Shown here in pieces: positions 3,664 through 56,748 of a DNA stretch of 64,000 nt. The notes under the pieces were generated by a model. The model had not been told where the DNA came from. It did no database searches and was given only the letters and a program-made list of their open reading frames with translations. Location of the stretch: positions 1,824,001 to 1,888,000 of the forward strand of contig OZ251992.1 in the NCBI GenBank assembly GCA_965246885.1, given 5' to 3'. Within the stretch, counting starts at the first letter, position 1. Each line of letters begins with the position of its first letter. Source of the DNA: Abditibacterium sp. (GTDB lineage: Bacteria > Armatimonadota > Abditibacteriia > Abditibacteriales > Abditibacteriaceae). The position numbers and the translations under genes were made by a program.

Positions 3664-3790
3664 GACTTTCCGGCTCCTATTTTCCATTCCCACGTGCCTG
3701 CCGTCCATTCCCGCGCCTGTGTCACCCACTCCCGCATGTGTGTGACTCATTCCTACATGCTTGTCATTCATTGGCAGGGGCGCGTCAATG
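3664..3790. repeat. Degenerate 21-bp periodic tandem array (CATTCC family)
   Basis: CA(T/C)T(C/G) recurs at 3685, 3706, 3727, 3748 and 3769. Confidence 0.7.
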
Positions 3791-3869
3791 GACGACAGAC
3801 GCGGGCGACGCGCCCGCCGCCCTCTGTTATCGGGCGCCCGCCGTCGCTTCGCACAGGGCGGGCCACATT

Positions 3870-5072
3870 TTAAAAGTTGACAACGGCGGAGCGGCCATCG
3901 GCGAAGGAAACGAGGGCTTGGTTTTGTCCGTGCAGCGAAGCGTGCGCGCCCACTGCGGCAGAAACGGCTCCCAATGGAGCAAACAGTTGGCCATCCACGA
4001 CTTGCGCGGCGGTCATCATCTGGGCCGTGCGGCCATTGATGGTGGCGCGCGAAGCGTTCGCGCGGAAGATGCCACTGGTGCGTCCGCTCGCGTCGGTGCG
4101 CACGGCGACGCCGTCGCCGCGCGCGCTCCATTGCACCCCGGCCATGCGCGCCATTTCGATGACGGGCACGAGCACAACCGGGCCGCGCGCGCCTTGCACG
4201 ACGCGCCCATTGAAGGGGGCGTCACCGGCGGGTACGACGGGTGAAGTGACGCGGGATTGTCCGAACGCGGGCGGATACTCGCTGTTTCCGCCCGCCAAAG
4301 TTAAAAAAGGCCCACCGTTGTTTTGGGCGACGCCCACGAGGTTTTCGCGGTTGATTTCGGCAGAAACGGCCTTTTGGCGGGCCGGAGAGGTGGGGTGATC
4401 GCTCAGGTATTTGCCCAACCCTTCCGGCCCATCACCCAAGCGGCCCAACATGGAAACGGCGGCGCGTGGGTCGAAACCCAAGCGGGCGATGGCGCGCGTG
4501 CCATAGTCGTCGGCCTGCGACTCCTCTTTGCGCGAGAAACCCTTTTGCCACAAGACGGCGCCGGTGTTCACCAAGCCGCCGACCAAGTCGCCCGCTTGTC
4601 CGCCGCGACTGCTGAGGATGCCGCCCAAGATGGCGGCGCCGATGCCGATGGTTTGCGATTTCTGCGCGGCTTTAACGACGTGGCGCAGTTCGACGTGCCC
4701 GGTTTCGTGGCCCAAAACGTAAGCTAACTCGGCGTCGTTTTGGGCGGTGGCCATCAGTTTCGTGGTGACAAACACCGGCCCGCCGGGGCCAGCGAACGCG
4801 TTGAGGACTTTGTCGTTTTGCAGAACTGTATAGGAGAAGGGGATGTTGCGGCGGGTGGCTTGGCGGGCGAGCATGGCGCCGATGCGCGAAACGCGGATTT
4901 GGCGCGGGTCGTTGGCGGGCAGGGGCTGGCCGTATTGCTGGATGGCTTGCTGGGCCATTGTCCGCCCGGCGGCGATCTCTTGCTCGTCGGAAATGGCGTG
5001 GGCCGGACGCACCGCCGCGCTGATTGTGACGGCGCACAAGCCAAGGGTCAAAAAGCGGAATGTGTGTTTCAT
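3870..5072 (-). CDS. Secreted M48 family metallopeptidase with C-terminal copper-amine-oxidase-N-like/stalk domain
   Basis: Signal peptide; NAFAGPGG, ELAYVLGHETGH (HExxH), FSRKEESQAD, LSDHP. Confidence 0.88.
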   Translation of the reverse strand: MKHTFRFLTLGLCAVTISAAVRPAHAISDEQEIAAGRTMAQQAIQQYGQPLPANDPRQIRVSRIGAMLARQATRRNIPFSYTVLQNDKVLNAFAGPGGPVFVTTKLMATAQNDAELAYVLGHETGHVELRHVVKAAQKSQTIGIGAAILGGILSSRGGQAGDLVGGLVNTGAVLWQKGFSRKEESQADDYGTRAIARLGFDPRAAVSMLGRLGDGPEGLGKYLSDHPTSPARQKAVSAEINRENLVGVAQNNGGPFLTLAGGNSEYPPAFGQSRVTSPVVPAGDAPFNGRVVQGARGPVVLVPVIEMARMAGVQWSARGDGVAVRTDASGRTSGIFRANASRATINGRTAQMMTAAQVVDGQLFAPLGAVSAAVGAHASLHGQNQALVSFADGRSAVVNF

Positions 5073-5191
5073 GGGATTTCGCAGTGGCGGCTTTGGACGC
5101 GATTTCGGTGCCGGAGTTCAGAGGAAAGCCCCGCAAACGGCGCGGAGGCCTTCCATTTGCCCTCAAACTACCCCACAAGTGGGGAATCGGG

Positions 5192-5220
5192 TTGAAGCGC
5201 GGCGCCGGGCGGTTTATAAT
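5192..5220 (+). promoter_or_regulatory. sigma70-type promoter of the sulfurtransferase gene
   Basis: TTGAAG-17 bp-TATAAT. Confidence 0.7.
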
Positions 5221-5264
5221 CCCCTGCTCCGGTTGCGCCCAAAGCCGAGCGCCCGCGAAACATC

Positions 5265-6119
5265 ATGTCAACCATCGAAACCAAAGGTTACGCCCATCCC
5301 GACGCCCTCGTGGACGTCGAGTGGGTCGAAGAGCACCGCAAGAACGGCACCATCAAATTAGTCGAAGTGGACGTGGACACCAACGCCTACTCCGAAGGGC
5401 ACATTCCCGGCGCCGTCGCGTGGAACTGGACGAGCCAACTGTCCGACAACGTGCGCCGCGACATCCTGAGCAAGCCCGAACTCGAAGCCCTCTTGTCCAA
5501 ATCCGGCATTTCCAACGACGACACCATCGTGCTTTACGGCGACAACAACAACTGGTTCGCCGCCTTCGCGCTGTGGATTTTAAAGATGTATGGCCACGAG
5601 AAAGTCGTGCTTATGGACGGGGGCCGCAAAAAGTGGGTGGCCGATGGTCGCGAACTCACGACTCAAGAAGAGTCTCCCGCACCCGCGCATTACACTGCTA
5701 AAGAGTTGGACAGCAGCTTGCGCTCGAACGTGCGCGAAGTGCTGGACATCGTGGACTCCGGCAACTACGAGTTAGTGGATGTGCGCTCGCCCGCCGAATT
5801 TACTGGCGAGGTCATCGCGCCTCCCGGCATGACCGAAACCGCCCAGCGCGGCGGCCACGTTCCCGGCGCCAAGTCCATCCCTTGGGCTTTGACGGTCGAA
5901 GAAGATGGCACCTTCAAAAGCGCCGATAAGTTGCGCGAACTCTACGCTTCGCGCGGCGTGTCGTTCCAAAAGCCCATCGTGGCCTATTGCCGCATCGGGG
6001 AACGCTCCAGCCATACGTGGTTCGTGCTGTCTTACCTGCTCGGCGAGAAGGGTTGCAAGAACTACGACGGCTCGTGGACGGAATACGGCTCGATGGTCGG
6101 CGTGCCGATTGAAAAGTAG
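5265..6119 (+). CDS. Two-domain rhodanese / thiosulfate sulfurtransferase (CysA/SseA-like)
   Basis: GHIPGA, DVRSPAEFTG, YCRIGERSS active loop, YDGSWTEYG. Confidence 0.95.
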   Translation: MSTIETKGYAHPDALVDVEWVEEHRKNGTIKLVEVDVDTNAYSEGHIPGAVAWNWTSQLSDNVRRDILSKPELEALLSKSGISNDDTIVLYGDNNNWFAAFALWILKMYGHEKVVLMDGGRKKWVADGRELTTQEESPAPAHYTAKELDSSLRSNVREVLDIVDSGNYELVDVRSPAEFTGEVIAPPGMTETAQRGGHVPGAKSIPWALTVEEDGTFKSADKLRELYASRGVSFQKPIVAYCRIGERSSHTWFVLSYLLGEKGCKNYDGSWTEYGSMVGVPIEK

Positions 6120-6146
6120 GGCGCCCACTTCCGTCGTCATGTCATC

Positions 6147-6183
6147 CGCCGGAGCAAACTTCAAGTTTGCTCCGGCGTTTTCT
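6147..6183 (+). terminator. Rho-independent terminator
   Basis: CGCCGGAGCAAACT-TCA-AGTTTGCTCCGGCG followed by a T-run. Confidence 0.75.
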
Positions 6184-6186
6184 TCT

Positions 6187-6555
6187 ATGTCTACCATTTC
6201 CCGCTTTACCCAGAAAGTCTTGGCGCAACCCGAATTGGCGCTGCTTGTGTTCGATGTTGCGGCGCTCTCTCCTTATAGTGCGCGCGGCGAAGTCAAGCGC
6301 ACCGACACGGTAGGGCGCGTCAAGACCGCGAACTGGTCGTTGGACTTTGGCATCGCGCCCGATGAGGCCACTATTCACGTTCCGCTCGGCGCTTTCCTGC
6401 AGAAGGTGCCCGAAAAGGAGCGCGCGTCGTGGCTCGAACACGCGGACTCGTCGCGATTTTCGGAGAACTTCCTGAAGATGCTGTCTTCGCATGCGTGCAT
6501 AGACGATGGGAACTTGCGAGGTTGGAGCGAGGAGAAGGAAGAGAGCTTTTTTTGA
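6187..6555 (+). CDS. Hypothetical protein (122 aa)
   Basis: ATG at 6187 in the long ORF, protein-like sequence (RTDTVGRVK...WSLDFGI). Confidence 0.7.
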   Translation: MSTISRFTQKVLAQPELALLVFDVAALSPYSARGEVKRTDTVGRVKTANWSLDFGIAPDEATIHVPLGAFLQKVPEKERASWLEHADSSRFSENFLKMLSSHACIDDGNLRGWSEEKEESFF

Positions 6556-6569
6556 GTTGAAGGCTCTCG

Positions 6570-6684
6570 TTTTGCGCGAATGAATTCGCAGCCAGCAAGA
6601 GTGTCGGCCTTCGCCGATGGGGTTGCTGCCCCTGCGTCGGCGAAGGCCGACACTCTTGCTGGCTGCGAATTCATTCGCGCAAAA
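6570..6684. repeat. REPIN-like perfect 48-bp inverted repeat
   Basis: Arms 6570-6617 and 6637-6684 are exact reverse complements; each has an internal GCGAATGAATTCGC palindrome. Confidence 0.9.
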
Positions 6685-6737
6685 CCAAAATCCAATATCT
6701 CCGGCTCTCACTTCCCGGTCGTGCGTCGGAAGTTTAT

Positions 6738-7793
6738 ATGCCCCGGTTTCGCGGATTTTTGGAGCGCGCGCTCGACGGCGGCGCGTTTCCGGGCGCGACG
6801 GCGTGTCTTCTGCGGGGGCGCGAGGTCGTTTGGTCGGGCGCCGTCGGAACTTTGGGCTACGAAGCGCCCTTTCGCGCGCCCACCCTTTCCGGCACTCTGT
6901 ATGACGTCGCTTCTTTGACGAAGATTTACACCCTTTCGGCGGCGTTGCTCGCGCTTCGGGAAGCGAACCTCGCGCCCGAAACGACCCCCCTCCGCGCTTT
7001 CTTGCCCGCCTTCGACGCGCGCATCACCTTGGAGCACCTTTTCAATCATTCCAGTGGACTGACGCGGCAGTTGCAGACATTGGAGCCGCTCCCGGCCAAC
7101 ACTTGGGTGGACACCTTGGCCCGCGAAACGCTGCAAACCGAACCGGGGCGGGTGGTGTTATACAACTGCTCGAACTACTTCCTGCTGGCGCGCGCCTTGG
7201 AACGATTGACCGGGGAGCCGCTGGATGAACTCGTGGCGCGCTACCTTTTGCGCCCGCTCCGCTTGGAAAACACGACGTTCGCGCCGTGCGATTTGGAGTT
7301 CGTCGCGCCCACTGAAGCCAAGCGCGGCGTCGGCGAAACCGGCTTTTGGCACGGCGAAGTGCACGATGAAGCGGCCCGCGCATGGCGCCGCGCAACGGGA
7401 ACCGGTTGCGGCAACGCTGGACTATTCGCTACTGCCGCCGACGTCGCCCGCTTCGCGGGCATCTGGCTCCTTGATGGGCGCGAGTCTCCCTTGCCGTCCA
7501 TTTGGCGTGCCCGCGCCATGATGCACATCTTGCCCGAAGGTGGCGCCGGACGCGGCTGGGGATTTGGGCGCGACGCCGACTACTACATGGGCGCGCTTCC
7601 CCATCGCCCCGACCAAACGCGCGGCTTTCTGATTGGGCATTTGGGCTTTACCGGCACCTCGCTCGTCCTCAACCCGCGCGCCGGAGAAATCGCCGTCGTG
7701 CTGTCCAACCGCGTCCACCCCACCAGACTCGGCCCCGACCGCCTCCCCTTCGTCCGTGCCCTGCACGAAGAGTTTTGGCGCTCCGGCCCATGA
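6738..7793 (+). CDS. Serine hydrolase, beta-lactamase-like (AmiE/EstB-like)
   Basis: DVASLTK (SxxK), LFNHSSG, YNCSNY, GEVHDE, GNAGLF, GHLGFTG, NRVHP. Confidence 0.9.
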   Translation: MPRFRGFLERALDGGAFPGATACLLRGREVVWSGAVGTLGYEAPFRAPTLSGTLYDVASLTKIYTLSAALLALREANLAPETTPLRAFLPAFDARITLEHLFNHSSGLTRQLQTLEPLPANTWVDTLARETLQTEPGRVVLYNCSNYFLLARALERLTGEPLDELVARYLLRPLRLENTTFAPCDLEFVAPTEAKRGVGETGFWHGEVHDEAARAWRRATGTGCGNAGLFATAADVARFAGIWLLDGRESPLPSIWRARAMMHILPEGGAGRGWGFGRDADYYMGALPHRPDQTRGFLIGHLGFTGTSLVLNPRAGEIAVVLSNRVHPTRLGPDRLPFVRALHEEFWRSGP

Positions 7794-7818
7794 TGCGGCG
7801 GCTTGCCAAACTGGGCGC

Positions 7819-9366
7819 GTGATTTCTCGGATTCTTTTGGGCGCCACGCTCCTGCTGTTGGCGCCTTTGGCGAGGGCGCAGGAGCGTGCGCCCCTCGCGT
7901 TACCGCCTGCGACGGAGCGGCAAATAGAAGCGATATTGCGCGCGCCGAACTTTGACGGCGCGCGGGTAGGGGTGGCGGTAGTGGCCTTGGGGCGCGCGAG
8001 TGGGGTGGACTCGGTACGCGTGAGGCCGTTTGCCGGTGGCGCGCAACCGATGCTGTTCGCGCGCGACGCCGGGAAGCGGTTCTTGCCCGCGTCCAACTTC
8101 AAACTGTTCACGGCGGCGTGGGCACTCGAATCGCTGGGCGGCTCGCACTCGTTCGACACGCGCGCGTTGGTGGCGCCGCTTCGCTTTGGGCGGGCGGGGG
8201 TGTGGCCCGTTGGGTCGCCGCTTCCGCTTGCGCTGATGCTGGAAGGAGAAGGCGACCCATCGTTGTCGGGGCAGGATTTGGCGCTTCTCGCCGACCGCGT
8301 GGCGGCCTCGCCGCTCCTCAAAGGGCAAGCGGTCGTGGTGCGGGTCGCGCCCTCGCGCTTGGCGGCGGAAGAGAACGGTGGGCGCTACCCCGACGGCTGG
8401 ACGCTGGACGACGCGACGTGGTATTACGGCGCGCCCATCACCGGTTGGGCGCTCGACCGCAATCAAGTGGACGTGTCGGTCATCGGGCAGAAGCCGGGCG
8501 AGTTAGCACGCTTGGAAGTCAAGGGGCAGGCGCCGATGGAGATATTCAACGGCGTCTTGACCGCGCCCGACAAAGCGTCGGCGACGGGCGCGCACTTCGA
8601 CCGGGGCGACCGCTCCTCGCCTTTTGGCCCCGCGCTTTCGATTAGCGGAACCGTCGCGCCGGGGTCGGTAGACGCCGAGGGCGTGGCCGTGCCCGACCCG
8701 AACGAGTGGATACGCGCGCGCTTTGGAGCGCTACTCCGGGTGCGTGGGGTGCGAGTCGTTGACCCCGGCGCCGCCTTTGCGACCGGAGCGCCGCAACTGG
8801 TGGCGACGCACCGCTCGCGTCCTTTGGGGGAAATACTGCGCCGCTTTTTGAAATCGAGCGACAACCTGTATGGCGAGATGCTCCTGCGCGCGGCGGCCCG
8901 AACGCCCGCGAAGAAGTGGCCCCAAGTCGCGTCGTCGGGCGTGGCGGCGCGCAGTCATGGCGCGATGCTGGACTGGTTGGCGTCCCAACAGGTGCCCGTC
9001 GCGGCGCTACGGATGTCGGACGGAAGCGGTTTGTCGCGCTATAATCTGGTGACGCCCGAAGCCCTCACGCGCCTGCTCGCCCTTGAAGCGCGGCAACGCG
9101 ACGGCGCCTTCTTTTACGGCGCGCTGCCGGTTGCCGGGGTGGACGGCACGCTCAAAAATCGCATGAAAGGCACGCCCGCGCAGGGGAACGTGCGCGCCAA
9201 AACCGGCACGTTCTCGATTGTCAACTGCTTGTCGGGGTATGTCACGACGCGCGACGGGGTGCGCTTGGCCGTCTCCGTCCTGACCAACTTCGCGCCCGAT
9301 GGCGACCGCGCCCGCGAGGACGAAGGCCGCATCTTCGCGGCCTTAGCAGGGGCGCGGTGGAAGTAG
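7819..9366 (+). CDS. dacB: D-alanyl-D-alanine carboxypeptidase/endopeptidase, PBP4 (S13)
   Basis: PASNFK, GEGDPSL, SDN, DGSGLSR, AGVDGTL, AKTGT; signal peptide from GTG 7819. Confidence 0.93.
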   Translation: MISRILLGATLLLLAPLARAQERAPLALPPATERQIEAILRAPNFDGARVGVAVVALGRASGVDSVRVRPFAGGAQPMLFARDAGKRFLPASNFKLFTAAWALESLGGSHSFDTRALVAPLRFGRAGVWPVGSPLPLALMLEGEGDPSLSGQDLALLADRVAASPLLKGQAVVVRVAPSRLAAEENGGRYPDGWTLDDATWYYGAPITGWALDRNQVDVSVIGQKPGELARLEVKGQAPMEIFNGVLTAPDKASATGAHFDRGDRSSPFGPALSISGTVAPGSVDAEGVAVPDPNEWIRARFGALLRVRGVRVVDPGAAFATGAPQLVATHRSRPLGEILRRFLKSSDNLYGEMLLRAAARTPAKKWPQVASSGVAARSHGAMLDWLASQQVPVAALRMSDGSGLSRYNLVTPEALTRLLALEARQRDGAFFYGALPVAGVDGTLKNRMKGTPAQGNVRAKTGTFSIVNCLSGYVTTRDGVRLAVSVLTNFAPDGDRAREDEGRIFAALAGARWK

Positions 9367-9383
9367 CGTTATGCCGTTCTGCC

Positions 9384-9519
9384 CCCCCATTGAAATCAGG
9401 GGCTACGCCCGTCTGCGGTGGAACTGTTCGTGGGAGCGAGCAACACGGGTTGCGGGTCATGTTCACGAAGGTGAACAGTTGGTGTGAAGCGCCGCGTAGC
9501 CCCCGAATTCATTCAGGGG
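9384..9519. repeat. GTAG-type REP doublet (inverted)
   Basis: GCGTAGCCCCTGATTTCAATGGGG on the minus strand and GCGTAGCCCCCGAATTCATTCAGGGG on the plus strand. Confidence 0.7.
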
Positions 9520-9527
9520 TGTTGTGA

Positions 9528-10040
9528 TTGCCTCAAACTCCCCCTCTATTCATGCGATTTCTATTGGGCGCGGCGGGCGTGGCGCTGCTTTTGGACATGG
9601 CGAGCAAGGCGTGGGTGCGCGCGCACTTGGCGTTGGGGGAAACGAGGGAGGTGCTGCCGGGGTGGTTGCACTTGCAGCACGTCCAGAATCGCGGCGCGGC
9701 GTGGAGCGTGCTGGCGGGGCACACCACATTTCTGATTCTCTTCACGCTCGGCGTTATCGCGCTTCTTGTGCTGTCGGCGCGCGAGATAGCGCGGCAGGGG
9801 GCGCCTTCGGCGGCGGCGTTTGGGCTGATATTGGGCGGGGCGGTGGGCAACTTTCTCGACCGCGCGCGGCAAGGGTTCGTGACCGATTTCTTCCATTTCG
9901 ACACGCCGCTCCCTTGGCTGCAAACGTTTCCGGTGTTCAATGTGGCCGATTCCGCCTTGACTGTAGGGGTGGTGCTGTTGATTCTGTCGGCGTTGTGGAA
10001 GTCGCGCCGCGCGAAGACTGCGGCGCCCTCTGTTAACTGA
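9528..10040 (+). CDS. lspA: Lipoprotein signal peptidase II (start may be ATG 9552)
   Basis: NRGAAWS, GGAVGNFLDR, VTDF, FPVFNVADS. Confidence 0.95.
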   Translation: MPQTPPLFMRFLLGAAGVALLLDMASKAWVRAHLALGETREVLPGWLHLQHVQNRGAAWSVLAGHTTFLILFTLGVIALLVLSAREIARQGAPSAAAFGLILGGAVGNFLDRARQGFVTDFFHFDTPLPWLQTFPVFNVADSALTVGVVLLILSALWKSRRAKTAAPSVN

Positions 10041-10079
10041 ACCCCTGCCGCGCCTGCGCGAGGCGCCGATACTTCTCTT

Positions 10080-11048: not shown

Positions 11049-11057
11049 GTTCCATCT

Positions 11058-12865: not shown

Positions 12866-12876
12866 AGGAGGGAGTT

Positions 12877-13075
12877 TGGCGCCCGAATAGTGGGGGACGG
12901 CTCCCGTCCCCCACTATTCAGCTTCCGTCCCTCCCTATTCGAGCGCTGTTACTTGAGTCACGGCTTCCGTCCCGCATTATTCAGCCGTCGTTCCTTGAGT
13001 AACGACGGCTGAAACTCAAGTAACGGGCGCCCGAATAGTGGGTAACGGCGGCTGTTACCCGCTATTCGGCGCCCA
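12877..13075. repeat. 21-bp periodic array with internal inverted units
   Basis: About 9 units such as CGGCTCCCGTCCCCCACTATT / CAGCTTCCGTCCCTCCCTATT / CGGCTTCCGTCCCGCATTATT; one 22-bp unit. Confidence 0.8.
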
Positions 13076-13155
13076 TCCCCGGTTGTGCCCTCGCTGCTTT
13101 TGGCATCCTTTGAACCGCTTTCGGAAGTGGCAGGTCTCGCGCTTCTGGTTGTCAG

Positions 13156-24241: not shown

Positions 24242-24340
24242 GATGTCTGTCACTGCTCGGCGGACGTCTGTCATTCATCCCCAGACGTCTGTCACTGAGT
24301 CCCAGAGGCCCGTCTTCGCTCGACAGACGTCTGTCCGCAA
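24242..24340. repeat. 21-bp periodic array (GACGTCTGTCA family)
   Basis: Units start at 24242, 24263, 24284, 24305 and 24326. Confidence 0.85.
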
Positions 24341-36723: not shown

Positions 36724-37602
36724 CTAAAAGTGCCCCCAGAAACTCGGTTTGTGCCACACCGCGAACCACCACAAACTCGCGCCCGCGAGCGCGTTGACGA
36801 CCGGAAATGCGCGGTAAATGCCCATCACGCCGCTTTGCGAGTTCGCGCGGAGCGATTGCAGCATCAAAACCGAGTAAACCGCCGCCAGAACCGCCGCCAA
36901 CCAGCCCAAAACTCCGGAAGATAGCGCCGCCGCGCCCAGATAGAACGCCCAACAGCCCAATAATGTCCCCCGCAGCCCCAGCCAAGTGGCGACGGTGGGC
37001 ACGCCCGCTTCCGTGTCGGCGTCTATGTCGGGCACGGCGGAGTAGGCGTGCATCGCCATCGCCCACAGCGTCGCGGCGAGGAACAGTTGGGGCGAGAAGT
37101 GGCGCCCGCCGCACACGAAATAGCCCAGCGCGCCGGGGAAAATGTAGAGGACGTTGAAGGCGGAATCGAGGAGCGGCCTCGCTTTGGCGCGGATGGGCGG
37201 CGCCGAGTAAAAGAGCGAGAAGAACAGAAACCCCGCCAAACACACCCAACTCGCGCGCGGCGAAAAGGGGAGCAACGCGGCGAACGGGAGGCACCACAGC
37301 GCGATGGATTTCCACAAGGCGGCGCGTTCGTCGGGCGGGACGAGAGTCTCGTAGCCGCGCTTTTTGGCGTTGAGAACGTCGGTATCGTAGTCGAAGATGT
37401 CGTTGGCGCCGTAGATGAGCAGGTTCGCCGGGAACAGAAAGAACAGCGCCCAGCCGAGCGCGAGCGGCGACAAATAAGCGCGCGGGTTCGGGCTGCCAAT
37501 CAGCGCGCCGACGATGAATGGCCCGAAAACATACATCCAAAAACGTGGGCGCGAAGCACGAAACAAGCGGCGAAAAGGCACGCGGGGAGTTTGGCGCCTC
37601 AT
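36724..37602 (-). CDS. UbiA-family prenyltransferase, lycopene elongase (CrtEb/LyeJ-like)
   Basis: [63 protein letters not shown]. Confidence 0.85.
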
Positions 37603-37615
37603 CCCGTCAACTGGA

Positions 37616-37909
37616 GGCGTCGCGCGACTCTGGCGGGAAGCCGCGCCGGAGTTGATGGAAAGGAATCAAGAGCCGAGGGAGTTCGCGCGACTCTGGCGGG
37701 AAGTCGCGCAAGAGCCGAGGGAGTTCGCGCGACGACCGAAGGAGTTCGCGCGACGACCGAAGGAGTTCGCGCGACGACCGAGGGAGTTCCTTCGGGAGCC
37801 GAGGGAGTTCCTTCGGGAGCCGAGGGAGTTCGCGCGACGACCAAAGGAGTTCCTTCAAGAGCCAAAGGAAGCCGTTCGGGAGCCGAGGGAAGCCGTTCGG
37901 CACACTGGG
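37616..37909. repeat. 14 x 21-bp tandem array (GAGTTC family)
   Basis: Units such as GAGTTCGCGCGACGACCGAAG and GAGTTCCTTCGGGAGCCGAGG in exact 21-bp register. Confidence 0.95.
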
Positions 37910-37912
37910 GAC

Positions 37913-40861: not shown

Positions 40862-40863
40862 CT

Positions 40864-42971: not shown

Positions 42972-43079
42972 AATTGTTGTGTCGAATGCTTATTAGCAAA
43001 GGCAATTGCCCGCCTGCAACACCCAACCCTCTAAATTATGCATCTGGGAGGATTCCCATAGGTTAAGGTTTCTTTATGT

Positions 43080-44069
43080 TTAGGTTAATTCTTGGCCTGT
43101 CAGCCCAAAGGCGTCGTCTCTGAGCCAATCTCCAGAGGCTGTCGATGATCGAGAGACGGCGGGCGAAGGCTGGCGGACGGCGGCGGAGCAATAGCGGACG
43201 TCTGCCGAACGGTGACGGGCGACGGTGAAGCGGCGGCGGTAGTCGCGCGGCGAAACGCCGAAGTGGGCGCGGAAGCGGCGGGCGAAAAAGTTGGCGTCGC
43301 CGTAGCCCACCCGCAGGGCAACGCGGGCAATGGATTCGTCACCGCCCAATAGTAACCCCGCCGCGCGCTCCATGCGCTCGCGCAGGAGATATTCCATCGG
43401 AGGAATTCCCAGCGCCCGTTTGAATTCGCGCGATAAATGTTCGCCCGATACGTGCGAGCGGCGGCTCAGTTCGCCCAATGTCCACGCGCGCTCCGATTCG
43501 TTGGAAAGCAGCGCCGCCGTCGTTGCTACGGCGGGGTGAGGCGCCCGCGTCGGGTTGGCTTCGAGTGGGCAACCGCGCCATAATTCGCATAGCAGGAGGA
43601 GGGTATGCGCGACGCTTTCAGTGCGGTGCGAGGCCGCGACCGCCCGCCGCCATAGGGTCAAGATCGTCTCTAAGCGCGCTTCCTCGATTTGCCAGACCTC
43701 CTCGCCGCGCCATGACGGAAAGCGCCAGCTTTGCACCCGCGCGCCCAACGCTGCATCGCAACCCAACGCCGACAGTTCGCGCCCCCCGAACGCCTCGCTC
43801 CAGCACACGTTGTAAACGCTGAGCGCAACGCACTCCCGATAAGCGTGCCAAGCGCGCGGACGCAGGAAAAGGACGCTGCCCCGTTCCAAGCGCGATTCGC
43901 CGCTTCCGGTTGAGTGGCACCCGGTTCCGCTTTCGATAATCGCCAACTCCCAAAAATCGTGATCGTGCGAAAAGAGCGAGCCATCCAACTGCGCGCTGTT
44001 CAAGTGCAAACCGAACGCGGGGGCGAAGGTCTCACGTCCTGATAGATGCCCCTCAACGGCTTCATTCAT
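43080..44069 (-). CDS. AraC family transcriptional regulator (cupin + HTH)
   Basis: HDHDFWEL cupin; HLSREFKR..G, VGYGDANFFARRFRAHFGVSPRDYR. Confidence 0.92.
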   Translation of the reverse strand: MNEAVEGHLSGRETFAPAFGLHLNSAQLDGSLFSHDHDFWELAIIESGTGCHSTGSGESRLERGSVLFLRPRAWHAYRECVALSVYNVCWSEAFGGRELSALGCDAALGARVQSWRFPSWRGEEVWQIEEARLETILTLWRRAVAASHRTESVAHTLLLLCELWRGCPLEANPTRAPHPAVATTAALLSNESERAWTLGELSRRSHVSGEHLSREFKRALGIPPMEYLLRERMERAAGLLLGGDESIARVALRVGYGDANFFARRFRAHFGVSPRDYRRRFTVARHRSADVRYCSAAVRQPSPAVSRSSTASGDWLRDDAFGLTGQELT

Positions 44070-44162
44070 CGCTCCCAGTCTGCCCGCTTTATCAAGGGCA
44101 TGCTACTTTTGCGCGCGTCGCGTCACCGTTTCGCGGCGGCAGATGCCGCACACTGAAACGCC

Positions 44163-45371: not shown

Positions 45372-46981
45372 GCCACATCCCCCACTACAAAGCGCACTTG
45401 GAGAGGCTCGGCGGAGTCCAAGTCGCGCGCTGCCACCACCCGAACCGTCACCGGATGCCCCACCTTTTGCACTTGCCGCAAGGCATCGAAGAGTTTTTGG
45501 CCGGTATCGCCGTCGAAGAAGTTCTGCTCTTCTGAGGACAATGGCGGCGAAGCCCCATTCTTAACGGCGCTGAGTCGGGCGTCATCCACGAGGCGCTGCA
45601 AATCGCCAAAGATGGCCGACTCGCTTTTGCGCGCGTCAATGGGCGCTTGAGTAATGATCTGGCGGGCGCTGTAGATGGTGCGAATGGGCACGAACACGAA
45701 GCGCGCAGCGACGACGGTAGTGGTCGCGGGGTAGTTGAAGGCCGACACGAGGCGGGCCGACACCGTTTGGTTGGCCGAAGAAAGCGCGCGGGCATAGACC
45801 TGCACCGTCTCGTCTTCGCTTAGTTCTATGGAGCGCCCCGTCGCTGGGTCGGCGAAGGGTGCGCCGACGACGAACTTAGCGCCCGGCACGAAGCCGTCTT
45901 TGTCGCCAACGGCCACGCGAGCGGCATCAATAAGGATGCGAAGCTGACGCACGATTTCTTCGGGGTGGTTAGTGGCATCGAAGCGGCGCTCGGCGAGCGT
46001 TTTGTCTACGGGCACACGGATGTCGCTAAACGCCAAGCCTTCGGCCAGTTCTCCGTATTGGGTGGCGGCAAGTTGCGCCTGCCCCACGTCGTCGTGGAGC
46101 GCTTTGACCTGTTTTTGTAAGCTGTTGCGCGCTGCCCGCGCCGCGTTCACTTCTTTTTGCGCTTGTGCGACTTCGCGGTAGGAGGCGGCAACTTCGCGGT
46201 AAGACTTTTCCAATTTCGCTTGCGTGCTTCCCAACTTCAAGTTCACTATCGCCAAGCGCACGTTGGCTTCGTTCAAGCGCGCTTGGCCCTGCGCGAGGCG
46301 GGCTTGCGTGCGTTGTAGCGCGAGTTGCGCTTTTTGGAGGGCGCCCTGCGCAACCTGCTCTTGGGTGCGGGCCGCGATTGCCGCAAGGCGGGCGCGCCCC
46401 TCGTTTGCCAAAGCGACTTGGGCGCCGTGCCGCGCGTTTTGCTCGCCGCGCCGCGCCACTTGTTCACCGAGTTGCGCGCGTTGGAGGTTGCGTTGCGCGC
46501 TTTGAAAGGCGCTTTGGGCTTGTTGGGCGGCGCTTTGGAAACGTCTCGCTTCGGTTTGAGACTGTTGGGCTTGAGCGCGCGCCGTCTGCGCTTGACCGCG
46601 AAACGCGGCGACGCTGGCTTGGGCGGTAGTCGCCGCGCTTTGCGCTTGGGCGCGGCGCTCGTCGGCGCGGCGGGTGCCCTCTTGGGAAAGGCGCAGTTTT
46701 TCCGCTGCCTCTTGCGTATCACGGGCAAAGCGGGCGCGCTCCGCATCGTAGCGGAAGAGTGCATGGCGAAGCGGCGCCACTGCCGCCAAGAGCGCCGCGA
46801 GCGTGAAGATCATTATCACCCAACTGGAAGCGACCGTGAGCAGGGTGGCCGACGTGCGCGGGCGCAGGCCGAAGACGGACACGCGCTTTTTGCCCAGTTT
46901 CTTGCCCAGATTATCCGACCAATGCGCGATAAAAGCCGTCGCCAGAAGCAACGCAACGAATAGCGCCAAAGGTGTCAGCAT
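45368..46981 (-). CDS. DUF3084 coiled-coil membrane protein
   Basis: D.LGKKLGKKRVSVFGLRPR.SA N-terminal motif, long coiled coil. Confidence 0.85.
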   Translation of the reverse strand: MLTPLALFVALLLATAFIAHWSDNLGKKLGKKRVSVFGLRPRTSATLLTVASSWVIMIFTLAALLAAVAPLRHALFRYDAERARFARDTQEAAEKLRLSQEGTRRADERRAQAQSAATTAQASVAAFRGQAQTARAQAQQSQTEARRFQSAAQQAQSAFQSAQRNLQRAQLGEQVARRGEQNARHGAQVALANEGRARLAAIAARTQEQVAQGALQKAQLALQRTQARLAQGQARLNEANVRLAIVNLKLGSTQAKLEKSYREVAASYREVAQAQKEVNAARAARNSLQKQVKALHDDVGQAQLAATQYGELAEGLAFSDIRVPVDKTLAERRFDATNHPEEIVRQLRILIDAARVAVGDKDGFVPGAKFVVGAPFADPATGRSIELSEDETVQVYARALSSANQTVSARLVSAFNYPATTTVVAARFVFVPIRTIYSARQIITQAPIDARKSESAIFGDLQRLVDDARLSAVKNGASPPLSSEEQNFFDGDTGQKLFDALRQVQKVGHPVTVRVVAARDLDSAEPLQVRFVVGDVA

Positions 46982-47026
46982 GGTGGGTGGCTTCTCTTCA
47001 GACGCGCGAAGGGCGCGCGGTTTCCG

Positions 47027-48277: not shown

Positions 48278-48287
48278 GGACTGGGGA

Positions 48288-49034: not shown

Positions 49035-49037
49035 GGC

Positions 49038-50060: not shown

Positions 50061-50175
50061 AAAGGAAGCGTTGGGGAAGCAGTTTGACGGACGCTCGGCG
50101 CCGGGGCACGGCGCGGCGTTTAGAGTTGTCGGGGAGTGGCAAGCTCAAGGGGGAGGGGCGACACTAACGGGCACG

Positions 50176-52212
50176 ATGAACCCCATCTTCCGGCGGGAGT
50201 TTCTGGCGCGCTGGCGCGACTGGCGGTCGCACTTGCTGCTGCTGGGCTTGGCGCTTCTGCTGAGCCTGACGGCGTTTCTGGTGTATCGCTTTGCGCTGCA
50301 AGACGCGCCGATGAACTACCGGGTTTATCCGCCGCGCCCGATTGTGGAGTCGTTGGCGACGCGGGCGTCGCGGGCGGGGCACACGCTGTTCACGTGGCTG
50401 GCGTGCGGCAACGTCGCCGTTTGGTTTCTGCTCGCGCCGCTTTTGTGCGCGACGGGGATCGCGCGCGAGCGGGAGCGCGGGCTGTTGGAGGGGTTGCAAC
50501 TGTCGCCGATGTCGCCGCGCTCGCAGGTGTGGGCGCGGGCGCTATCGGCGATGCTTTATCTGGCGGCATTGCAACTGGTGACGCTGCCGATTTACTTCGT
50601 GGCGTTCTCGTTTGGCGGGGTGTCGGAAGGGGAAATCGGTCGCGCGTGGTTGGTAGTGGCGGCGACGGCGTGGTGCGGAGTGGGGTTGGGGCTGTCGTTG
50701 TCGGCGGCGGCGTATCGGCCATCGGGCGCGCTGTTTGGGGCGGTGGCGCTGGTGTTTGGGTGGACGGTAGCGGCGGTGCTGGGGTTTAGTGGCATGGCGG
50801 GGCCTTGGGGGATGCTCAGTTTGGGGGTGTGGACAAGGCCGCTCGCGTTCGTGTTGTTCTGTTCGCATCCGGCGATGGTAGCGGGCGCGGTGTGCGACTC
50901 GACGTTCGCCGGTTACTTTAGCGTGGTCAGTCCAACCAGTTACGGGCCGCCGTTTTGGACGTTCGACCGCGTGTTTCCGCTTTGTGTGGCGGGATGTTTC
51001 GCGGCGGGCGCGCTTGGCCTGTGGAAGACGACGCGCGAGGTGACGCGCGCCTTCGAGCCGTCGGGGTGGGCGGGGCGTAACCCGTTGGTCGAAGGGTGGA
51101 AGAAGCGGCGCGCGGCGCGGCTGGAATCGCGGCGAGCGCGGGCGCGGACGCGCATGAGCGTCGAGGGCGCGCTACTGGCCGACTTGCCCTTCGACAAGTG
51201 GATTCGCTTCAAGAACCCGCTCCTGAACCGCGAGGTGAGAAGCCGCTTTCGCTTGCGGCGCACGAGCGCGCCGCTGTGGTTCGGGCGCGGCGTGTTGGCT
51301 TTGTTGGCGGCGAGCGCGTGGTTGCGGGCGGTGGATGCGCTCCTTGACCCGCCCGGACGGGTGGCGGGCGCGGCGTTTCTGCTGTGGACGGAGTGGCTAC
51401 TGGGCGCGGCGCTTGTCGGGACGTGGGCGGCGTCGGGATACGCGCGCGAGCGCGAAGCGGGAACATGGGAAGGCTTGCGCTTGTCGCTGCTGGGAAGCGG
51501 CGCCATCGCGCGCACCAAGTGGGCGTCGCCGCTTCTCGCCTTTGCGCTCCTGACCATCCCCTTGTGGGGGCTGTTGCTCGCTTTTGCGCACGTCGGGAAC
51601 TGGAGCGGCGTGCCGATAGCGGTGCTGTTGGCGGGGGCGCTGGTCGTCGCGACGTCGCTGGGGGTCATCAGCGCGCTGGGCAACTGGGTATCGCTGCGCG
51701 CCCGCAACACCACCACCGCGACCTGCTGGACGCTGGGGCTGTTGCTGGGCGGTTTCGCTATCGCGCCGCCCCTGTTGGATGAGGTGGGCGTAAGCGACTG
51801 GTGCGTGCGGCACATTACCGGTGTGCCGAGACCAAGCGACTACGTTGGCAGTGGCCAAGACTATCAGTGGCGACAATTCCCAGAGGTTCTCGCGCGCTAC
51901 GAGTGGGAGACTGGAAGCAAGGCTCCCCCCCTCCAGCCACCTCACCCGCTCACTCACGCAGGAATACTGTCTTTTGCGGAAAAGAATAAGCGTTTTAGCG
52001 CGTGGTGCGAAACAAAAGGGGCGCAAGTGGCGGATGTCGGCGTTTCGTTGAAGGCTTGGAACCCCCTTTCTGTGCTGTACCGCTTCGAGAACCAACCCGA
52101 CAAGGACGATGATTACGTGCGACTGGCCCTCACGCATGCCGTCTTGTGCGCCGTTGCCATCGCGCTCCTCCTCGGAAGCACAGTGCGGCGGCTAAAGGGG
52201 CGGCTGGACTAA
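50176..52212 (+). CDS. ABC-2 type permease with two tandem permease domains
   Basis: NPIFRREF and NPLLNREVR; IARERERGLLEGL and YAREREAGTWEGL. Confidence 0.85.
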   Translation: MNPIFRREFLARWRDWRSHLLLLGLALLLSLTAFLVYRFALQDAPMNYRVYPPRPIVESLATRASRAGHTLFTWLACGNVAVWFLLAPLLCATGIARERERGLLEGLQLSPMSPRSQVWARALSAMLYLAALQLVTLPIYFVAFSFGGVSEGEIGRAWLVVAATAWCGVGLGLSLSAAAYRPSGALFGAVALVFGWTVAAVLGFSGMAGPWGMLSLGVWTRPLAFVLFCSHPAMVAGAVCDSTFAGYFSVVSPTSYGPPFWTFDRVFPLCVAGCFAAGALGLWKTTREVTRAFEPSGWAGRNPLVEGWKKRRAARLESRRARARTRMSVEGALLADLPFDKWIRFKNPLLNREVRSRFRLRRTSAPLWFGRGVLALLAASAWLRAVDALLDPPGRVAGAAFLLWTEWLLGAALVGTWAASGYAREREAGTWEGLRLSLLGSGAIARTKWASPLLAFALLTIPLWGLLLAFAHVGNWSGVPIAVLLAGALVVATSLGVISALGNWVSLRARNTTTATCWTLGLLLGGFAIAPPLLDEVGVSDWCVRHITGVPRPSDYVGSGQDYQWRQFPEVLARYEWETGSKAPPLQPPHPLTHAGILSFAEKNKRFSAWCETKGAQVADVGVSLKAWNPLSVLYRFENQPDKDDDYVRLALTHAVLCAVAIALLLGSTVRRLKGRLD

Positions 52213-52237
52213 GGCGGGGGCGCACACTATAACCCCG

Positions 52238-53942
52238 GTGGCCCGCTTTTCCGATTTTCCCATTCTCACGCGCGAAGTGCGGGCGCGCTTTCGGCGTGAG
52301 CGGGCGTTTGCTTTGCTGGGAGTGTTGTTGATGGCGGCGGTGTGGATGGTGTTGCGGCGCTTGGGGGCTTCCGACGTGCCGATAGCGCCGGGAGTGTCGG
52401 TGCTGGTGCCGTTGTCGCAGGAGTTACTGGTGCAGTTGGTGTGGACACAAATCGCGGGCGTGTGCCTCTTGGCGCCAATGATAGCGGCGCCCCTCATCGC
52501 GCGCGAGCGGGAAAGCGGCGCGACGGACGACTTGTTGCTAACGCCCCTGTCGCCGCTCCGGTTGGCACTGGAAAAGTGGGCGGCGGGCGGGCTGTTTTTG
52601 GGATTATTGTTGCTCGCACTGTGGCCGCTCGACATGGTGGCGCTGTTGCTGGGCGACACGCCGATTGCGGACATGTGGCCGCTCGCGCTCTTGGTGGCGG
52701 GTTGTTGGGCGTGGGGGAGCGCGTTGGGAACGGTGTGCTCGGCGGGGGCACGTCGTGCCGCGAGTGCGCTGCGGAGCGCGGTGGGCATAGCGTTCGTTTG
52801 GCTGGCAGGCTCGCTGTTGTGTGCTGTTCTAACGGGCGAGACGACTTGGGGCGCGGGCGTGGAGCGCAGCGCCGGTTTGGGTGGCGTGGATAGGGCGCAC
52901 CAACCCGATTTTGTGCGCGCTCGATTTGCTGCATCCCTCGCTCCTGCTGCCCGCGAAGTGGCCGTTTTGCGCGGCGTTCTTGGCGGGCGGAACGGCGCTG
53001 TTTGTGGGCGTGGCCGCGTTGTCGCTATGCAAGCCGTTGCCGGATTTGCCCATCATCGCAGCCAAGCACAACGGCAAAATTGGCGGGGTGAGCGGCGCGC
53101 TGTCGCGGTTGGAGATGCCGCTCGTGGGGCGCTTCGCGCCGAGTAATCCTGTGTTGGGCCGCGAAGCGCGGGGCAAGTTCCGCTTGCGTCAGCCGCCCTT
53201 GGCGGTGCTGGTGTCGGAGGTGGTGCTGGCGCTGGGGGTGATGGGAGGTTACGGGTTCTTGGTGCGCCAAGCGATTGTTGACTCCAAGACGCGTCCGGCA
53301 ATTTTCTGGGGCGTGGCGTGGACGGGCTTCTTCGTGTCCATCTTGGCGGCGGCAAGTCTGGGCGGGGCGGCCTTAGCGCGCGAGCGCGAAAACGGCACGT
53401 GGGACGCGCTGCGCCTCTCGCTGTTGTCCGCCCCGCAGATAGTGCGCGGCAAACTAATCGCGGCGTTGGCGACGTGCCTTGCGCTCTCGCTCCCGGTATG
53501 GCCGTTGCTGCTCTTGTGCGTGGATTGGGGCGGCGCATGGGTGCCCACGCACGGCGCGCAAGTGCAACCGTTCCAGTTGGTCGCGGCCATGCTCATCTGG
53601 CTGGGCGTGTTGTGGAGCCATACACTGCTGGGGTTGCTCTTGTCGGCGAGGGCGTCCAAGGCAGGAGCGGCAGTGGGCGGCGCCATCGCGGTATCGCTCG
53701 CGTGGATGCTTGGATCGCTGTTTTTGGTAACGGGCAACGGTGGCGCCATCGGGCTATTGGCCATCATCAACCCGCTAATGGCGTTGGCCGTAGCGACTGA
53801 CCCGCCACCCACATATATGGCGGCGGCGGCTGGTTGGCCGTATGCCCTCTTCGCGTTTGCGTTGGGCGCGCTGATGCTGGCGCTGGTCGAGTCGGAAGTG
53901 GTGGCGTTGTTGGAAGGGCCGCTACAGCGCGTGAAGGAGTAG
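52238..53942 (+). pseudogene. Second double-domain ABC-2 permease, frameshifted near 52850-52880
   Basis: First half in ORF 52238 (PILTREVR, IARERESG) and second half in ORF 52881 (NPVLGRE, ARERENGTW); together they match the upstream paralog architecture. Confidence 0.75.
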
Positions 53943-53949
53943 ACGAAGT

Positions 53950-55188
53950 CTACTCCCCCACCGGTGCAATCGCCACCCGCGACGACAATTGCAACACCCC
54001 GCCGCCCTTCGCATCGGGGTAGTCCGCCGCTCCGAAGAGGGCTACCCATCGCGCTCCTTTTGGCGGTTTGGGACGCGGCGCCACCCAGTTGGCACCGCGT
54101 CGGGTCATCGGTGTTGCGCTCCAAGTGGCTTGCCGAAAGTCGCGCGAGCCGCTCCACGCCCAGTGCAAAAGCGCGCTCCCCGCGCCCGGCGCGCGTAGCT
54201 CTTCCTGTCCCGCCGTCTTCTGGAGCGTGGGGTTGGGTATCGTTTGGCCCGCGAGCGTGCGGCGTATCCACTGTGCCGAGCTTTGCAGAAGCGTGGGAAC
54301 GCTATTGCCCATCGTGTGCCCTGCCCCGGCGAAATAGAGCCAGTTCGTTGGGCCGCGTACCTCTTTTGCAAAAGCGTCGGGCGCATCCGGTGTCCAGTAG
54401 TCCGAGTTCGTGGCGTCTATGAGCAGCTTCGGCACGCGGATGTCCGCGCGAAAGGAGTACGGATCCCACGTCTGCAACAGCGCCACACCGCGCGGCTGTT
54501 GCAAGCGCGCCTCGTAGTCCGTCCCGACCATCGCCGTCCAATGCGGTGATAGCTGCCCCCAGTCGCGGAGTTGCAAACGGGTCTGCGCCGCCAGATTCAA
54601 GTTGTTGTAGCCCAGCGACACCAGCGCCGCCACGCGCGGGTCGCTCGCAGTCAGCCATGCACCCAGCGCCCGCTTGGAAAAACCGACCAGAACGAACCGC
54701 TTCAGGGGCGCCTTGGACGGTGCAGCCCACGCTTGCACTGCGTCCATCGAAGCTTTGGCCGCCCTTGCGAGTGGGAAGGCGAGAGACCACGTCGGGTCGC
54801 CCGTCTGCTCGGAGCGCTGTATCGAATAACCGAGCAGGCCGTTCTCCCTTCGGTTCCACAACGGCTGATTCGGCACGTCGTACACCATCGCAACGGTTGT
54901 GCCCGTCGCGTCCGCCGCCAGTTGCCCGCCCAAACCGTCCCAAGGCACCGGATTCGTCAGCAGCAACAGCGTCGCTGTGCCGGGAAAGCGGTTGTCGCGC
55001 GGCACGAACACCCGCGCGCGGTGCGTCCACACCGTCCCGTGCCACGCGCCCGACGAAAAGGAGAAATTCGCCGCGCCGTCGCGCCGCAAGTGCAGGTCGT
55101 GCTTGGCCGCGAGGAACTGCCGGAGTGGGCGAGTGGCGTCGGTTGCGCTGCGATGCGGCGGGGCGGTGCTTATAGGCAGTAAGGGCAT
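53950..55188 (-). CDS. PhoPQ-activated pathogenicity-related (PqaA-like) alpha/beta hydrolase
   Basis: WTH, VPNQPL, SMDAVQ, GFSKR..W, DPYSF, ATNSDYW, DFR.A.W. Confidence 0.85.
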   Translation of the reverse strand: MPLLPISTAPPHRSATDATRPLRQFLAAKHDLHLRRDGAANFSFSSGAWHGTVWTHRARVFVPRDNRFPGTATLLLLTNPVPWDGLGGQLAADATGTTVAMVYDVPNQPLWNRRENGLLGYSIQRSEQTGDPTWSLAFPLARAAKASMDAVQAWAAPSKAPLKRFVLVGFSKRALGAWLTASDPRVAALVSLGYNNLNLAAQTRLQLRDWGQLSPHWTAMVGTDYEARLQQPRGVALLQTWDPYSFRADIRVPKLLIDATNSDYWTPDAPDAFAKEVRGPTNWLYFAGAGHTMGNSVPTLLQSSAQWIRRTLAGQTIPNPTLQKTAGQEELRAPGAGSALLHWAWSGSRDFRQATWSATPMTRRGANWVAPRPKPPKGARWVALFGAADYPDAKGGGVLQLSSRVAIAPVGE

Positions 55189-56568
55189 CTAAAACGCCCT
55201 CGCGGTCAGCACCCGTTGCCCGTTCGTCCACAGCGGCGACGCCAACACGAGCGGCGAAGGCGTTCCCTTCTCGCTCCACTGCGCTTGCGCGAAGACCGCG
55301 CCGAACGGCTCAAGGCGTGCGTTGGGCACGCTCAACACCCAACCGGTTTCCGTATGTTGCATCGGAATCGAGCGCCACTGGGCGTGGCGGAAATCACGGG
55401 ATTGGCTTTTCGCGCCCCAAAGGACGACCGATGTTGGAGCGCCGCTCACTGTTGCCGTAAACGTGTCGCCGCCGTGCATAAGGCTAATGGTGGGCACCGT
55501 CTCGCCGCCCAAAAGTAGCCTCGACCACACCGCCGCCGACTGCGCGAGGGGCACAATCTGCGCGCCGAGAAAGTGCGTGGAGTTCGGCGCGTAGTAAGTG
55601 GAAAGCGCGGTCTGATGACCGAGTTCGTCGCGGTAGAGGGTTTGGGCGTCGTGCGGCCAATAGCCATCGTTGGTGGCGTTGATGGAGAGGATGGGCACCG
55701 TGAGGCGCTTCAAATAGGAGTAAGGGTCAACGGCGCGCAGTAGCTCTTTGCCGCGCTCCGAGCCGGTAGCGCCTTCGTCCATCAAGCCGAGGTTGGAGAA
55801 CGCGACGGACAAGTCGGAGGTGCCGCCCCACACCTCGTGCTGATGCCGAATTTGCGCGGGGATGTTGAGGTTGTCATACACGACCGGCGCGGCGCCGCCG
55901 ACCCGCTTATCACCCGCCGCGACCAAGTAGGCCGTCCAGCCGCGCTTGCTCGCGCCGGTGACGATGAAGCGCTCAATGCGCTTGCCGTTCTTTTGCAACG
56001 ACCACGCTTGCAAGGCATCCATTGCTTTCACGACGGACTTAGCCATCGGCAGCAGAATAGGCCAACTGGCGTCTCCCGTTTCGAGGTATTTTCCAAAGGA
56101 ATAGGCGACCAACTCATCTTCCTCGCGCCCGTAAAGCGGCTGATTTGGGACGTTGAAGACGTTGACGGCATAGGCGCCGGACACATCGGCGATGCCTTGG
56201 CCGAGAATGGATTCGGGAAAGGAGCCGCCGCCGTACGAGATGTTGAGCACGGCGGCGTCGGGGAAATCGAGTTTGGCGGGCTTGAACACCTGCAAGCGGT
56301 GCGTCCAGTCGCCGCCCTGCCATGTTTGCGAAGTGAGCTTGAGGTTGGCGAAGCCGTCGCCCGCGTAGTCGGGCGAAACGTCGCTCCATTTATAACTGGG
56401 TTCGGGGCGTTTGAGAAAGGTGTCCAAGGCGGTGGGTTCGGTTTGGGGCGTCGCGGCGGATGCTTTCGGGGTGGACGCAACGGATTTGACGAGCGGCGCG
56501 GCGGGAGTAGTCGTGGCGGCTTGGCATCCGGCGAGGGCGAGCGCGGCCAACGGGAGAAGGCGAGACAT
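55189..56568 (-). CDS. PqaA-like alpha/beta hydrolase, lipoprotein
   Basis: Lipobox LAGC; LTSQTWQ, VPNQP, PMAKSVVKAMD, GASKRGWT, DPYSY. Confidence 0.88.
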   Translation of the reverse strand: MSRLLPLAALALAGCQAATTTPAAPLVKSVASTPKASAATPQTEPTALDTFLKRPEPSYKWSDVSPDYAGDGFANLKLTSQTWQGGDWTHRLQVFKPAKLDFPDAAVLNISYGGGSFPESILGQGIADVSGAYAVNVFNVPNQPLYGREEDELVAYSFGKYLETGDASWPILLPMAKSVVKAMDALQAWSLQKNGKRIERFIVTGASKRGWTAYLVAAGDKRVGGAAPVVYDNLNIPAQIRHQHEVWGGTSDLSVAFSNLGLMDEGATGSERGKELLRAVDPYSYLKRLTVPILSINATNDGYWPHDAQTLYRDELGHQTALSTYYAPNSTHFLGAQIVPLAQSAAVWSRLLLGGETVPTISLMHGGDTFTATVSGAPTSVVLWGAKSQSRDFRHAQWRSIPMQHTETGWVLSVPNARLEPFGAVFAQAQWSEKGTPSPLVLASPLWTNGQRVLTARAF

Positions 56569-56622
56569 GTCTCTCTTCCAGACGCCCATGCCGCGCCGAT
56601 GTTTCCCGACGCGGCGTGGAGA

Positions 56623-56748
56623 AGCGCCGATGTCCGGGAACGAGTGACAGACGTCTGAGAATCAATGACAGGCGTCTGGGAATCGGTGACAGGCGTCTGG
56701 GAATCGGTGACAGGCGTCTGGGAATCGGTGACAGACGTCCGTCTTCCT
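56623..56748. repeat. 21-bp tandem array (reverse complement of the 24242 family)
   Basis: (G/A)TGACAG(G/A)CGTCTGGGAATCG units at 56644, 56665, 56686, 56707 and 56728. Confidence 0.92.

Follow-up and report, generated by a model that had tools for sequence, protein, structure and literature searches.

Multiplied 21-bp repeat arrays in an Abditibacterium genome and their possible origin in a gene cassette

Why should repeat arrays that differ in sequence keep exactly the same unit length? The question is raised by a 64 000-nucleotide stretch of an Abditibacterium sp. genome (the window, G000 C1:1824001-1888000; genome approx. 3.56 Mb, 62.5% GC), in which a preliminary description reported five intergenic arrays with a 21-bp register. 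All five are present at the positions reported, in intergenic DNA and with 21-bp steps: Tandem Repeats Finder (TRF) returned period 21 at window positions 12900, 24241, 37673 and 56632, and the array at 3664 was detected by a lag-21 scan. Our answer, to which we assign a probability of roughly one half, is that the arrays were multiplied within this one genome and derive from a gene cassette in which an array acts as the docking site for the protein encoded downstream. The arrays keep an exact register, are built from pseudo-symmetric units, change by whole units, undergo inversion and block copying, invade genes in frame, and are coupled in position to two gene families.

The shared phase is real and extends across the genome. 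A lag scan with a score of at least 16 yielded 294 lag-21 loci covering 33 415 bp, against 1, 4, 1 and 2 loci at lags 19, 20, 22 and 23, and 32 and 25 loci at lags 18 and 24. The genome-wide TRF check proposed earlier gave the same strong enrichment, with 342 rows at period 21 and 47 at period 18. Residual signal was detected in intergenic DNA from which arrays had been masked (4-mer match 0.0098 at lag 21 and 0.0093 at lag 42, versus 0.005-0.008), and no 7-base sub-period was found, the match being 0.28 at lag 7 and 0.74 at lag 21. Genes were called with an in-house dicodon model that missed some AT-rich genes; on these calls, 210 of the 294 arrays lie outside genes. The intergenic placement reported for the window thus holds for its five arrays but not for the 84 loci elsewhere that overlap genes, part of which are ordinary protein repeats and part the same DNA families in frame. 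Similarly, the window arrays do occupy three divergent and two tandem gaps, but divergent gaps are not enriched genome-wide (53/210 arrays versus 377/1648 gaps of 60 nt or more), and the 210 arrays occupy tandem, divergent and convergent gaps in about background proportion. Of 110 tandem gaps, 89 have the array on the side closer to the stop codon.

The window arrays had been assigned to about four families with no obvious shared sequence. We find three: the arrays at 3664, 24242 and 56623 all belong to family A, that at 37616 to family E, and that at 12877 forms the third. Across the genome, shared 12-mers join 150 of the 179 non-coding arrays in one network (largest null component 21), so most families are not unrelated; the remainder are small families or singletons. 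The linkage resolves into 20 components in all, and a single genome thus holds several families that agree in length but not in sequence. Hairpins abound in the 12877 array, a mosaic with no long copy elsewhere and a single unit-level relative at G000 C1:2803909 (19/21 bases). It also contains one 22-nt step. The arrays of the window are as follows.

3664..3810, minus strand: family A array with some 6-7 diverged units, in a tandem gap flanked by genes for an M48 peptidase and a DUF1559 prepilin-like protein
12877..13075, no strand: mixed-orientation array of about 9 units with long hairpins (z -12.3), in the divergent gap between NamZ-like and glycosyltransferase genes
24242..24340, minus strand: family A array that begins right after the stop codon of a DUF2330 gene, ahead of a sugar transferase gene
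37598..37911, no strand: family E array, some 14 units long, in a divergent gap with UbiA-like and carotenoid-biosynthesis genes on its two sides
43155..43239, no strand: weak family-A-like array (score 16) within the 3' part of an AraC-family gene, absent from the preliminary description
56623..56748, plus strand: family A array of 5-6 units with a GACGTC core, in the divergent gap ahead of typA/bipA, on the opposite strand relative to the other family A arrays of the window

A further lag-21 signal, at window positions 46413-46600, falls within a gene that looks like an ordinary protein repeat of the coiled-coil type, outside the DNA families.

Family A comprises 80 loci and 442 units in this genome. 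Its unit is pseudo-palindromic, combining a 6-bp palindromic GACGTC-type core with a 15-nt part in either orientation, and its arms are drawn from a small vocabulary, again in either orientation. Among unit pairs lying within 260 nt of each other, the phase is exact for 457 of 460 on the same strand and for 277 of 280 on opposite strands (734 of 740 pairs overall). Positions 5 and 14 are conserved in 96-97% of 254 inner units, in a family whose membership was set by a profile that favours conserved columns; many other positions are two-state, and the conserved positions are dyad-symmetric. Mismatch inside the arrays is also position-dependent, from 0.09 to 0.55. Adjacent inner units have 6.3 differences on average, against 8.9 between units of different arrays, and are therefore not simply slippage copies. 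The nearest relative of an inner unit is in another array in 175 of 251 cases and in its own array in 42, a count biased toward other arrays by the far larger number of outside units on offer. Units are rarely solitary: at a score of 20 or more, 195 lie in arrays, 22 outside them and none alone in genes, the 22 being all intergenic and mostly accompanied by in-register neighbours.

Comparison with closely related DNA shows how the arrays change. A 32-kb contig of genome G010 (C24), probably a conspecific contig binned into another genome but conceivably a transferred island, is 97-99% identical to G000 C1:2505407-2529900 outside the CRISPR array, and the older spacers are common to both. All three arrays shared by the two sequences differ by whole units (+126, -84 and -21 nt, or +6, -4 and -1 units), and within one unit a 14-nt segment flanked by inverted arms has been inverted. 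The comparison of orthologous loci proposed earlier revealed differences in presence and absence and an empty site. At the empty site, seen in a relative's low-depth contig (about 87% alike), 39 other bases join window positions 37597 and 37912; the junction was seen in two of three runs, both from one study. No lag-21 array was found at loci orthologous to the 56623 array in 14 relatives, for which some contigs are truncated. No shared leader, tail, flanks or target duplication was found at the 80 family A loci.

Block copying is evident within the genome. Positions C1:668013 and C1:672899 share 169 identical bases that make up eight units, core to core, C1:1501704 and C1:2848970 have 398 nt in common at 90%, and one duplicated block has inverted ends built from its own units. 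The same DNA families are found in frame in the genes for urea carboxylase, FtsK, DnaX, RecG, SecA, UvrA, PrmA and a CheA-like kinase, with in-gene copies in both orientations (5 and 4). The array stretch of urea carboxylase is 53 residues longer than in two relatives, and in three other genes the array takes the place of a variable linker. The SecA gene (C1:2780431-2787183) encodes 2250 residues with the SecA domains split, which indicates large inserts, possibly inteins.

Among the relatives sampled, this abundance is peculiar to one genome. The family A doublet pattern has 78 matches in G000, one in G010 (on contig C24) and none in 29 other genomes of the class. In 775 551 bp from 15 relatives there were three lag-21 matches, all coding-like by eye, and one lag-22 match, whereas G000 has 6.6 per 100 kb. 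Public collections gave 14 scattered family A matches (3 genome contigs, 10 metagenomes and 1 viral), most of them an unrelated double operator or chance. Among other sequences, Streptomyces poonensis (L064) has a 21-bp array of about seven units with a similar GACGTC core, and a CAGACGTCTG palindrome pair exactly 21 bp apart is conserved in an alphaproteobacterial metagenome-assembled genome and metagenome contigs (L065, L069-L077); this pair is probably the double operator of a regulator.

A search for a gene family beside the longest arrays, as the preliminary description had suggested, revealed two partner families. We took the neighbours of long non-A arrays in G000 and then sought their homologues among 400 genomes of the phylum. 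Two G000 genes without an NCBIfam match have an array just upstream, one encoding 231 residues (C1:525622-526317; family 1) and the other 214 residues (C1:1335829-1336473; family 2). Outside G000, a 21/22-bp array lies within about 450 nt upstream of family 1 homologues at 8 of 13 loci, and upstream of family 2 at 5 of 8 (one masked). Of 30 loci from a profile search with family 1, 19 were followed up; the remainder were loci already covered (four) and C-terminal fragments or second matches (seven). Five of these 19 were already in the first homologue set; at the other 14, new and not used in building the profile, 11 had an upstream array with a period of 21, 22, 42 or 44. Family 1 thus has an upstream array at 19 of 27 loci outside G000, in 11 genomes, while none of 19 downstream 600-nt controls contained any of these periods. 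The cassette arrays lie 0-450 nt upstream, vary in sequence between genes and have no open frame in common; those of a close paralog pair (L178/L179) are visibly related. At several partner loci sigma70-like boxes can be seen by eye between the array and the start codon, suggesting that the arrays sit upstream of promoter-like boxes.

The proteins of both families are unnamed, approximately 210-240 residues long, and have no significant match to each other. Family 1 has 2819 representatives at 50% identity; a signal-like hydrophobic N-terminus is absent in 130 of 130, and basic positions are conserved. Its predicted model (pLDDT, the predicted local distance difference test, of 95) places helices, one of them 41 residues long, at the N-terminus and a sandwich predicted as an FN3 domain at the C-terminus. 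A sequence search of the PDB with family 1 gave nothing significant, and its neighbours in the atlas belong to unnamed clusters found most often in Verrucomicrobiota and Acidobacteriota. A link to the window is provided by the 37616 array, one unit of which agrees in 19 of 21 bases with the array upstream of the 231-residue gene; the 37616 array and four others in G000 match the cassette array at 17-20 of 21 bases, against a mode of 13.

These observations can be drawn together as follows. An ancestral cassette would have consisted of a gene and its own upstream docking array, from which arrays escaped and spread. The encoded protein may bind its own array cooperatively, along one helix face at every two turns, in the manner of centromere- or iteron-binding proteins, and such binding would fix the length while array sequence and protein specificity drift. 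The dispersed arrays would then be escaped, non-autonomous copies, propagated perhaps by slippage, template switching and exchange at shared cores. Slippage and template switching are established in repeat and quasi-palindrome mutagenesis. Among the four mechanisms originally put forward, phased protein-binding tracts would fit best; heptad open reading frames (ORFs) and hairpin RNAs are not supported.

Several findings weigh against the derivation from a cassette. No gene family adjoins most G000 arrays, and G000 has only one full-length member of each partner family. Family A, to which three of the five arrays in the window belong, reaches at most 15 of 21 bases when matched to the two cassette arrays. 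Eight of the 27 family 1 loci have no nearby array (some are partial or broken), and 10 positive loci over both families come from a single genome, G036. Family 1 proteins have a net charge near zero, and the PDB matches listed for the predicted fold are FN3 domains only, with no DNA-binding protein among them. Finally, the gene does not suffice by itself, since G003 and G008 have gene and array but no dense spread in the sampled DNA (120 kb and 20 kb). A literature search covering main texts found no paper linking such arrays to an FN3-like protein.

A more far-reaching version of the cassette origin can be offered only tentatively. It is possible that the helical-plus-FN3 protein, whose diverse members number in the thousands, forms a widespread two-part system with an array of its own, phased at 21/22 bp and placed upstream of the promoter. 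The protein would polymerize on the array, sequence and specificity would drift together with the period locked, and the system would seed and maintain the fixed-length satellites of many bacterial phyla, with a runaway in G000 to about 1% of the genome that rewrote protein linkers. Fixed-length, free-sequence bacterial satellites have so far been catalogued without a mechanism, and a protein family with its own sequence-variable 21/22-bp array offers a direct way to test the requirement for constant length. G000 in turn displays the modes by which such repeats move and change, along with in-frame insertion (urea carboxylase, ftsK, dnaX, recG, secA and uvrA). If binding is real, the partners would constitute a naturally occurring DNA-binding family that spans many different specificities.

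The alternative that survives best, though we consider it doubtful, is that the arrays are self-propagating satellite DNA. The period would be inherited from founder arrays because exchange occurs in register, and the position upstream of partner genes would reflect regulatory use (a variable promoter element bound by another factor) or shared mobility. Slippage, inversion and block copying are all in evidence here and make a dedicated protein unnecessary, most non-coding arrays belong to the one word-sharing network, and arrays appear wherever they are tolerated, near stop codons in tandem gaps and in variable linkers; nor is the partner fold a known DNA-binding fold. However, this explanation does not account for a 21-22 bp period in unrelated sequences upstream, and not downstream, of the same gene family in 12 genomes, nor for the equal length across phyla apparent from the parts of PMC8161180 consulted.

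It is less likely that a general host nucleoid protein polymerizes on DNA with a signal every two helical turns and thereby selects the period, as proposed by Subirana and Messeguer. The chromosomal spread of the arrays is even (9-17 per 250 kb), orientation bias is absent (21 versus 21) and the conserved positions have the dyad symmetry noted above, all of which would suit such a protein. On the other hand, such arrays are almost absent from the sampled DNA of congeners, many loci are variable or empty in close relatives, and arrays inside essential genes are hard to see as selected sites.

A role as RNA hairpins, whether REP-like mRNA stabilizers, terminators or small RNAs and possibly spread by Y1/RAYT-like transposases, is improbable. 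The strong folding of the 12877 array (z -12.3) speaks for it, as does a z below -2 for 27% of the 179 arrays relative to period-preserving nulls; arrays lie near stop codons, target duplication is absent, and G000 contains five Y1 (IS200/RAYT-like) loci (L036-L040). In family A, however, arm pairing around the core is 2.43 versus 2.41, with no co-variation, and pairing around the spacer (2.56 versus 2.70 +/- 0.04) is below shuffled sequences. Most of the Y1 genes are flanked by long inverted repeats of their own, unrelated to the arrays, and Y1 genes are present in 11 of 12 congeners, while Rfam matches in the window are limited to tRNAs. Least probable, and largely refuted, are heptad peptides, decayed heptad-repeat genes (which the arrays did not prove to be) or a 21-nt replication ruler acting on any sequence: one frame of several families does show 3-4 hydrophobic spacing, conservation in family A is often highest at second codon positions, and nine near-perfect intergenic duplications of 21 nt are without a shared 12-mer (0-2 at other lengths), but stops occur in all six frames of family A arrays (13-65 of 80 arrays per frame), in-gene copies run in both orientations, relay ORFs number 3/110 versus 34/1100 in controls, and orphan 21-nt duplications in coding DNA number 3, versus 8, 1 and 3 at 15, 18 and 24 nt.

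Other candidate drivers were considered and rejected. No link to the arrays was found for RAYT, IS110, stand-alone GIY-YIG, Cas1 or the single reverse transcriptase. The arrays are not CRISPR arrays, having no spacers; the CRISPR array of this genome is separate, with a period of about 66. Beside it, at C1:2544049-2545546, cas1 and cas4-like frames look fragmented and have a 21-bp array between them. Many 6-bp palindromes and degenerate sites are almost wholly avoided in G000 and its congeners (e.g. GGGCCC, CCATGG, CTCGAG and TTCGAA; also CTAG), with CCGCGG occurring 19 times in G000 versus 3641 expected, and a crude motif search for methyltransferases returned a single candidate. Because this avoidance is genus-wide, it is ruled out as the cause of the arrays. 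No repair-gene difference from four close relatives was found for MutS, ExoVII, SbcD_C and Ku, ExoVII being missing in G003 only (genome 89% complete). Two other kinds of repeat were observed. A separate REP-like hairpin family with CGTC-tagged ends is found at C1:1502165, 920820, 1889696, 1286294, 888481, 2953539 and 3232222, and at C1:1502232 a 21-bp array starts at the 3' end of such a hairpin, a possible new array birth. A 169-nt element (95% identity) at C1:2290307-2290475 and C1:2750554-2750722 separates an array from a large orphan gene that has no NCBIfam match (550 and 675 residues), the array families differing at the two loci.

How do these arrays compare with known systems? The plasmid parC/ParR, tubC/TubR, sopC/SopB and Rep-iteron systems have phased direct repeats beside the promoter of the binder's gene, and the repeat sequence drifts with the protein. 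The cassette arrays likewise lie beside the promoter of a fixed partner gene, whereas most dispersed copies do not, and the partner protein has no match to known centromere- or origin-binding families. By analogy, the cassette may function in the manner of a centromere or iteron array and its cognate binder, without being a member of those families. The small dispersed repeats (SDR) of Nostoc, which Elhai et al. are said to have described in 2008, are reportedly dispersed units of 21-27 nt, some in frame within genes. The G000 arrays resemble them in having dispersed units of about 21 nt, some of them in frame; family A units, however, are almost never solitary.

The BrickBuilt minisatellite-MITE (a miniature transposable element with inverted repeats) of Porphyromonas gingivalis, as outlined in the parts of PMC4596501 consulted, is also dispersed, species-restricted and intergenic, with a similar unit length (23 nt). 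It has a single unit sequence, a leader and tail, and IS5-type terminal inverted repeats, whereas family A lacks shared flanks and target duplication. REP/BIME/REPIN elements with RAYT, and NTS/dRS3 with Ssn nucleases, are described in the relevant parts of PMC3116915, PMC3733652 and PMC11893778 as repeats paired with a repeat-flanked protein gene, forming mosaic arrays and lying near stop codons, as here. The G000 arrays differ from REP/RAYT in having no tagged hairpin, and the five Y1 loci carry other repeats; they differ from NTS/dRS3 in that G000 has no stand-alone GIY-YIG gene and the dRS3 pattern at 3 sites only. In contrast to both, the array here is on one side only of the partner gene.

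The closest counterpart is a published class (Subirana and Messeguer 2021). The sections of PMC8161180 consulted describe bacterial tandem repeats that are constant in length (20-21 nt) and variable in sequence, fall into species-specific families, have short signals in common and are of unknown function. Those sections point out that the length equals two helical turns and that the repeats are mostly non-coding and variable between strains; a binding protein is only hypothesized, with a call for a protein that needs constant length. The G000 arrays share the dominant 20-21 nt length with four or more units, the presence in one genome of several equal-length families of different sequence, the species specificity and strain variability, and a mostly non-coding location (210/294) together with a short signal, the GACGTC-type core of family A. 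With these four features of the class, the system cannot be called undescribed, as it had been at first. It is denser in G000, where 136 non-coding arrays have four or more units in 3.55 Mb, against 22-30 per genome in the 21-nt-rich Bacillus examples in Table 4 of PMC8161180, a comparison in which the G000 detector is the looser. In-frame invasion of housekeeping genes, micro-inversion, block copying and a linked protein family are features of G000 that go beyond the description in those sections.

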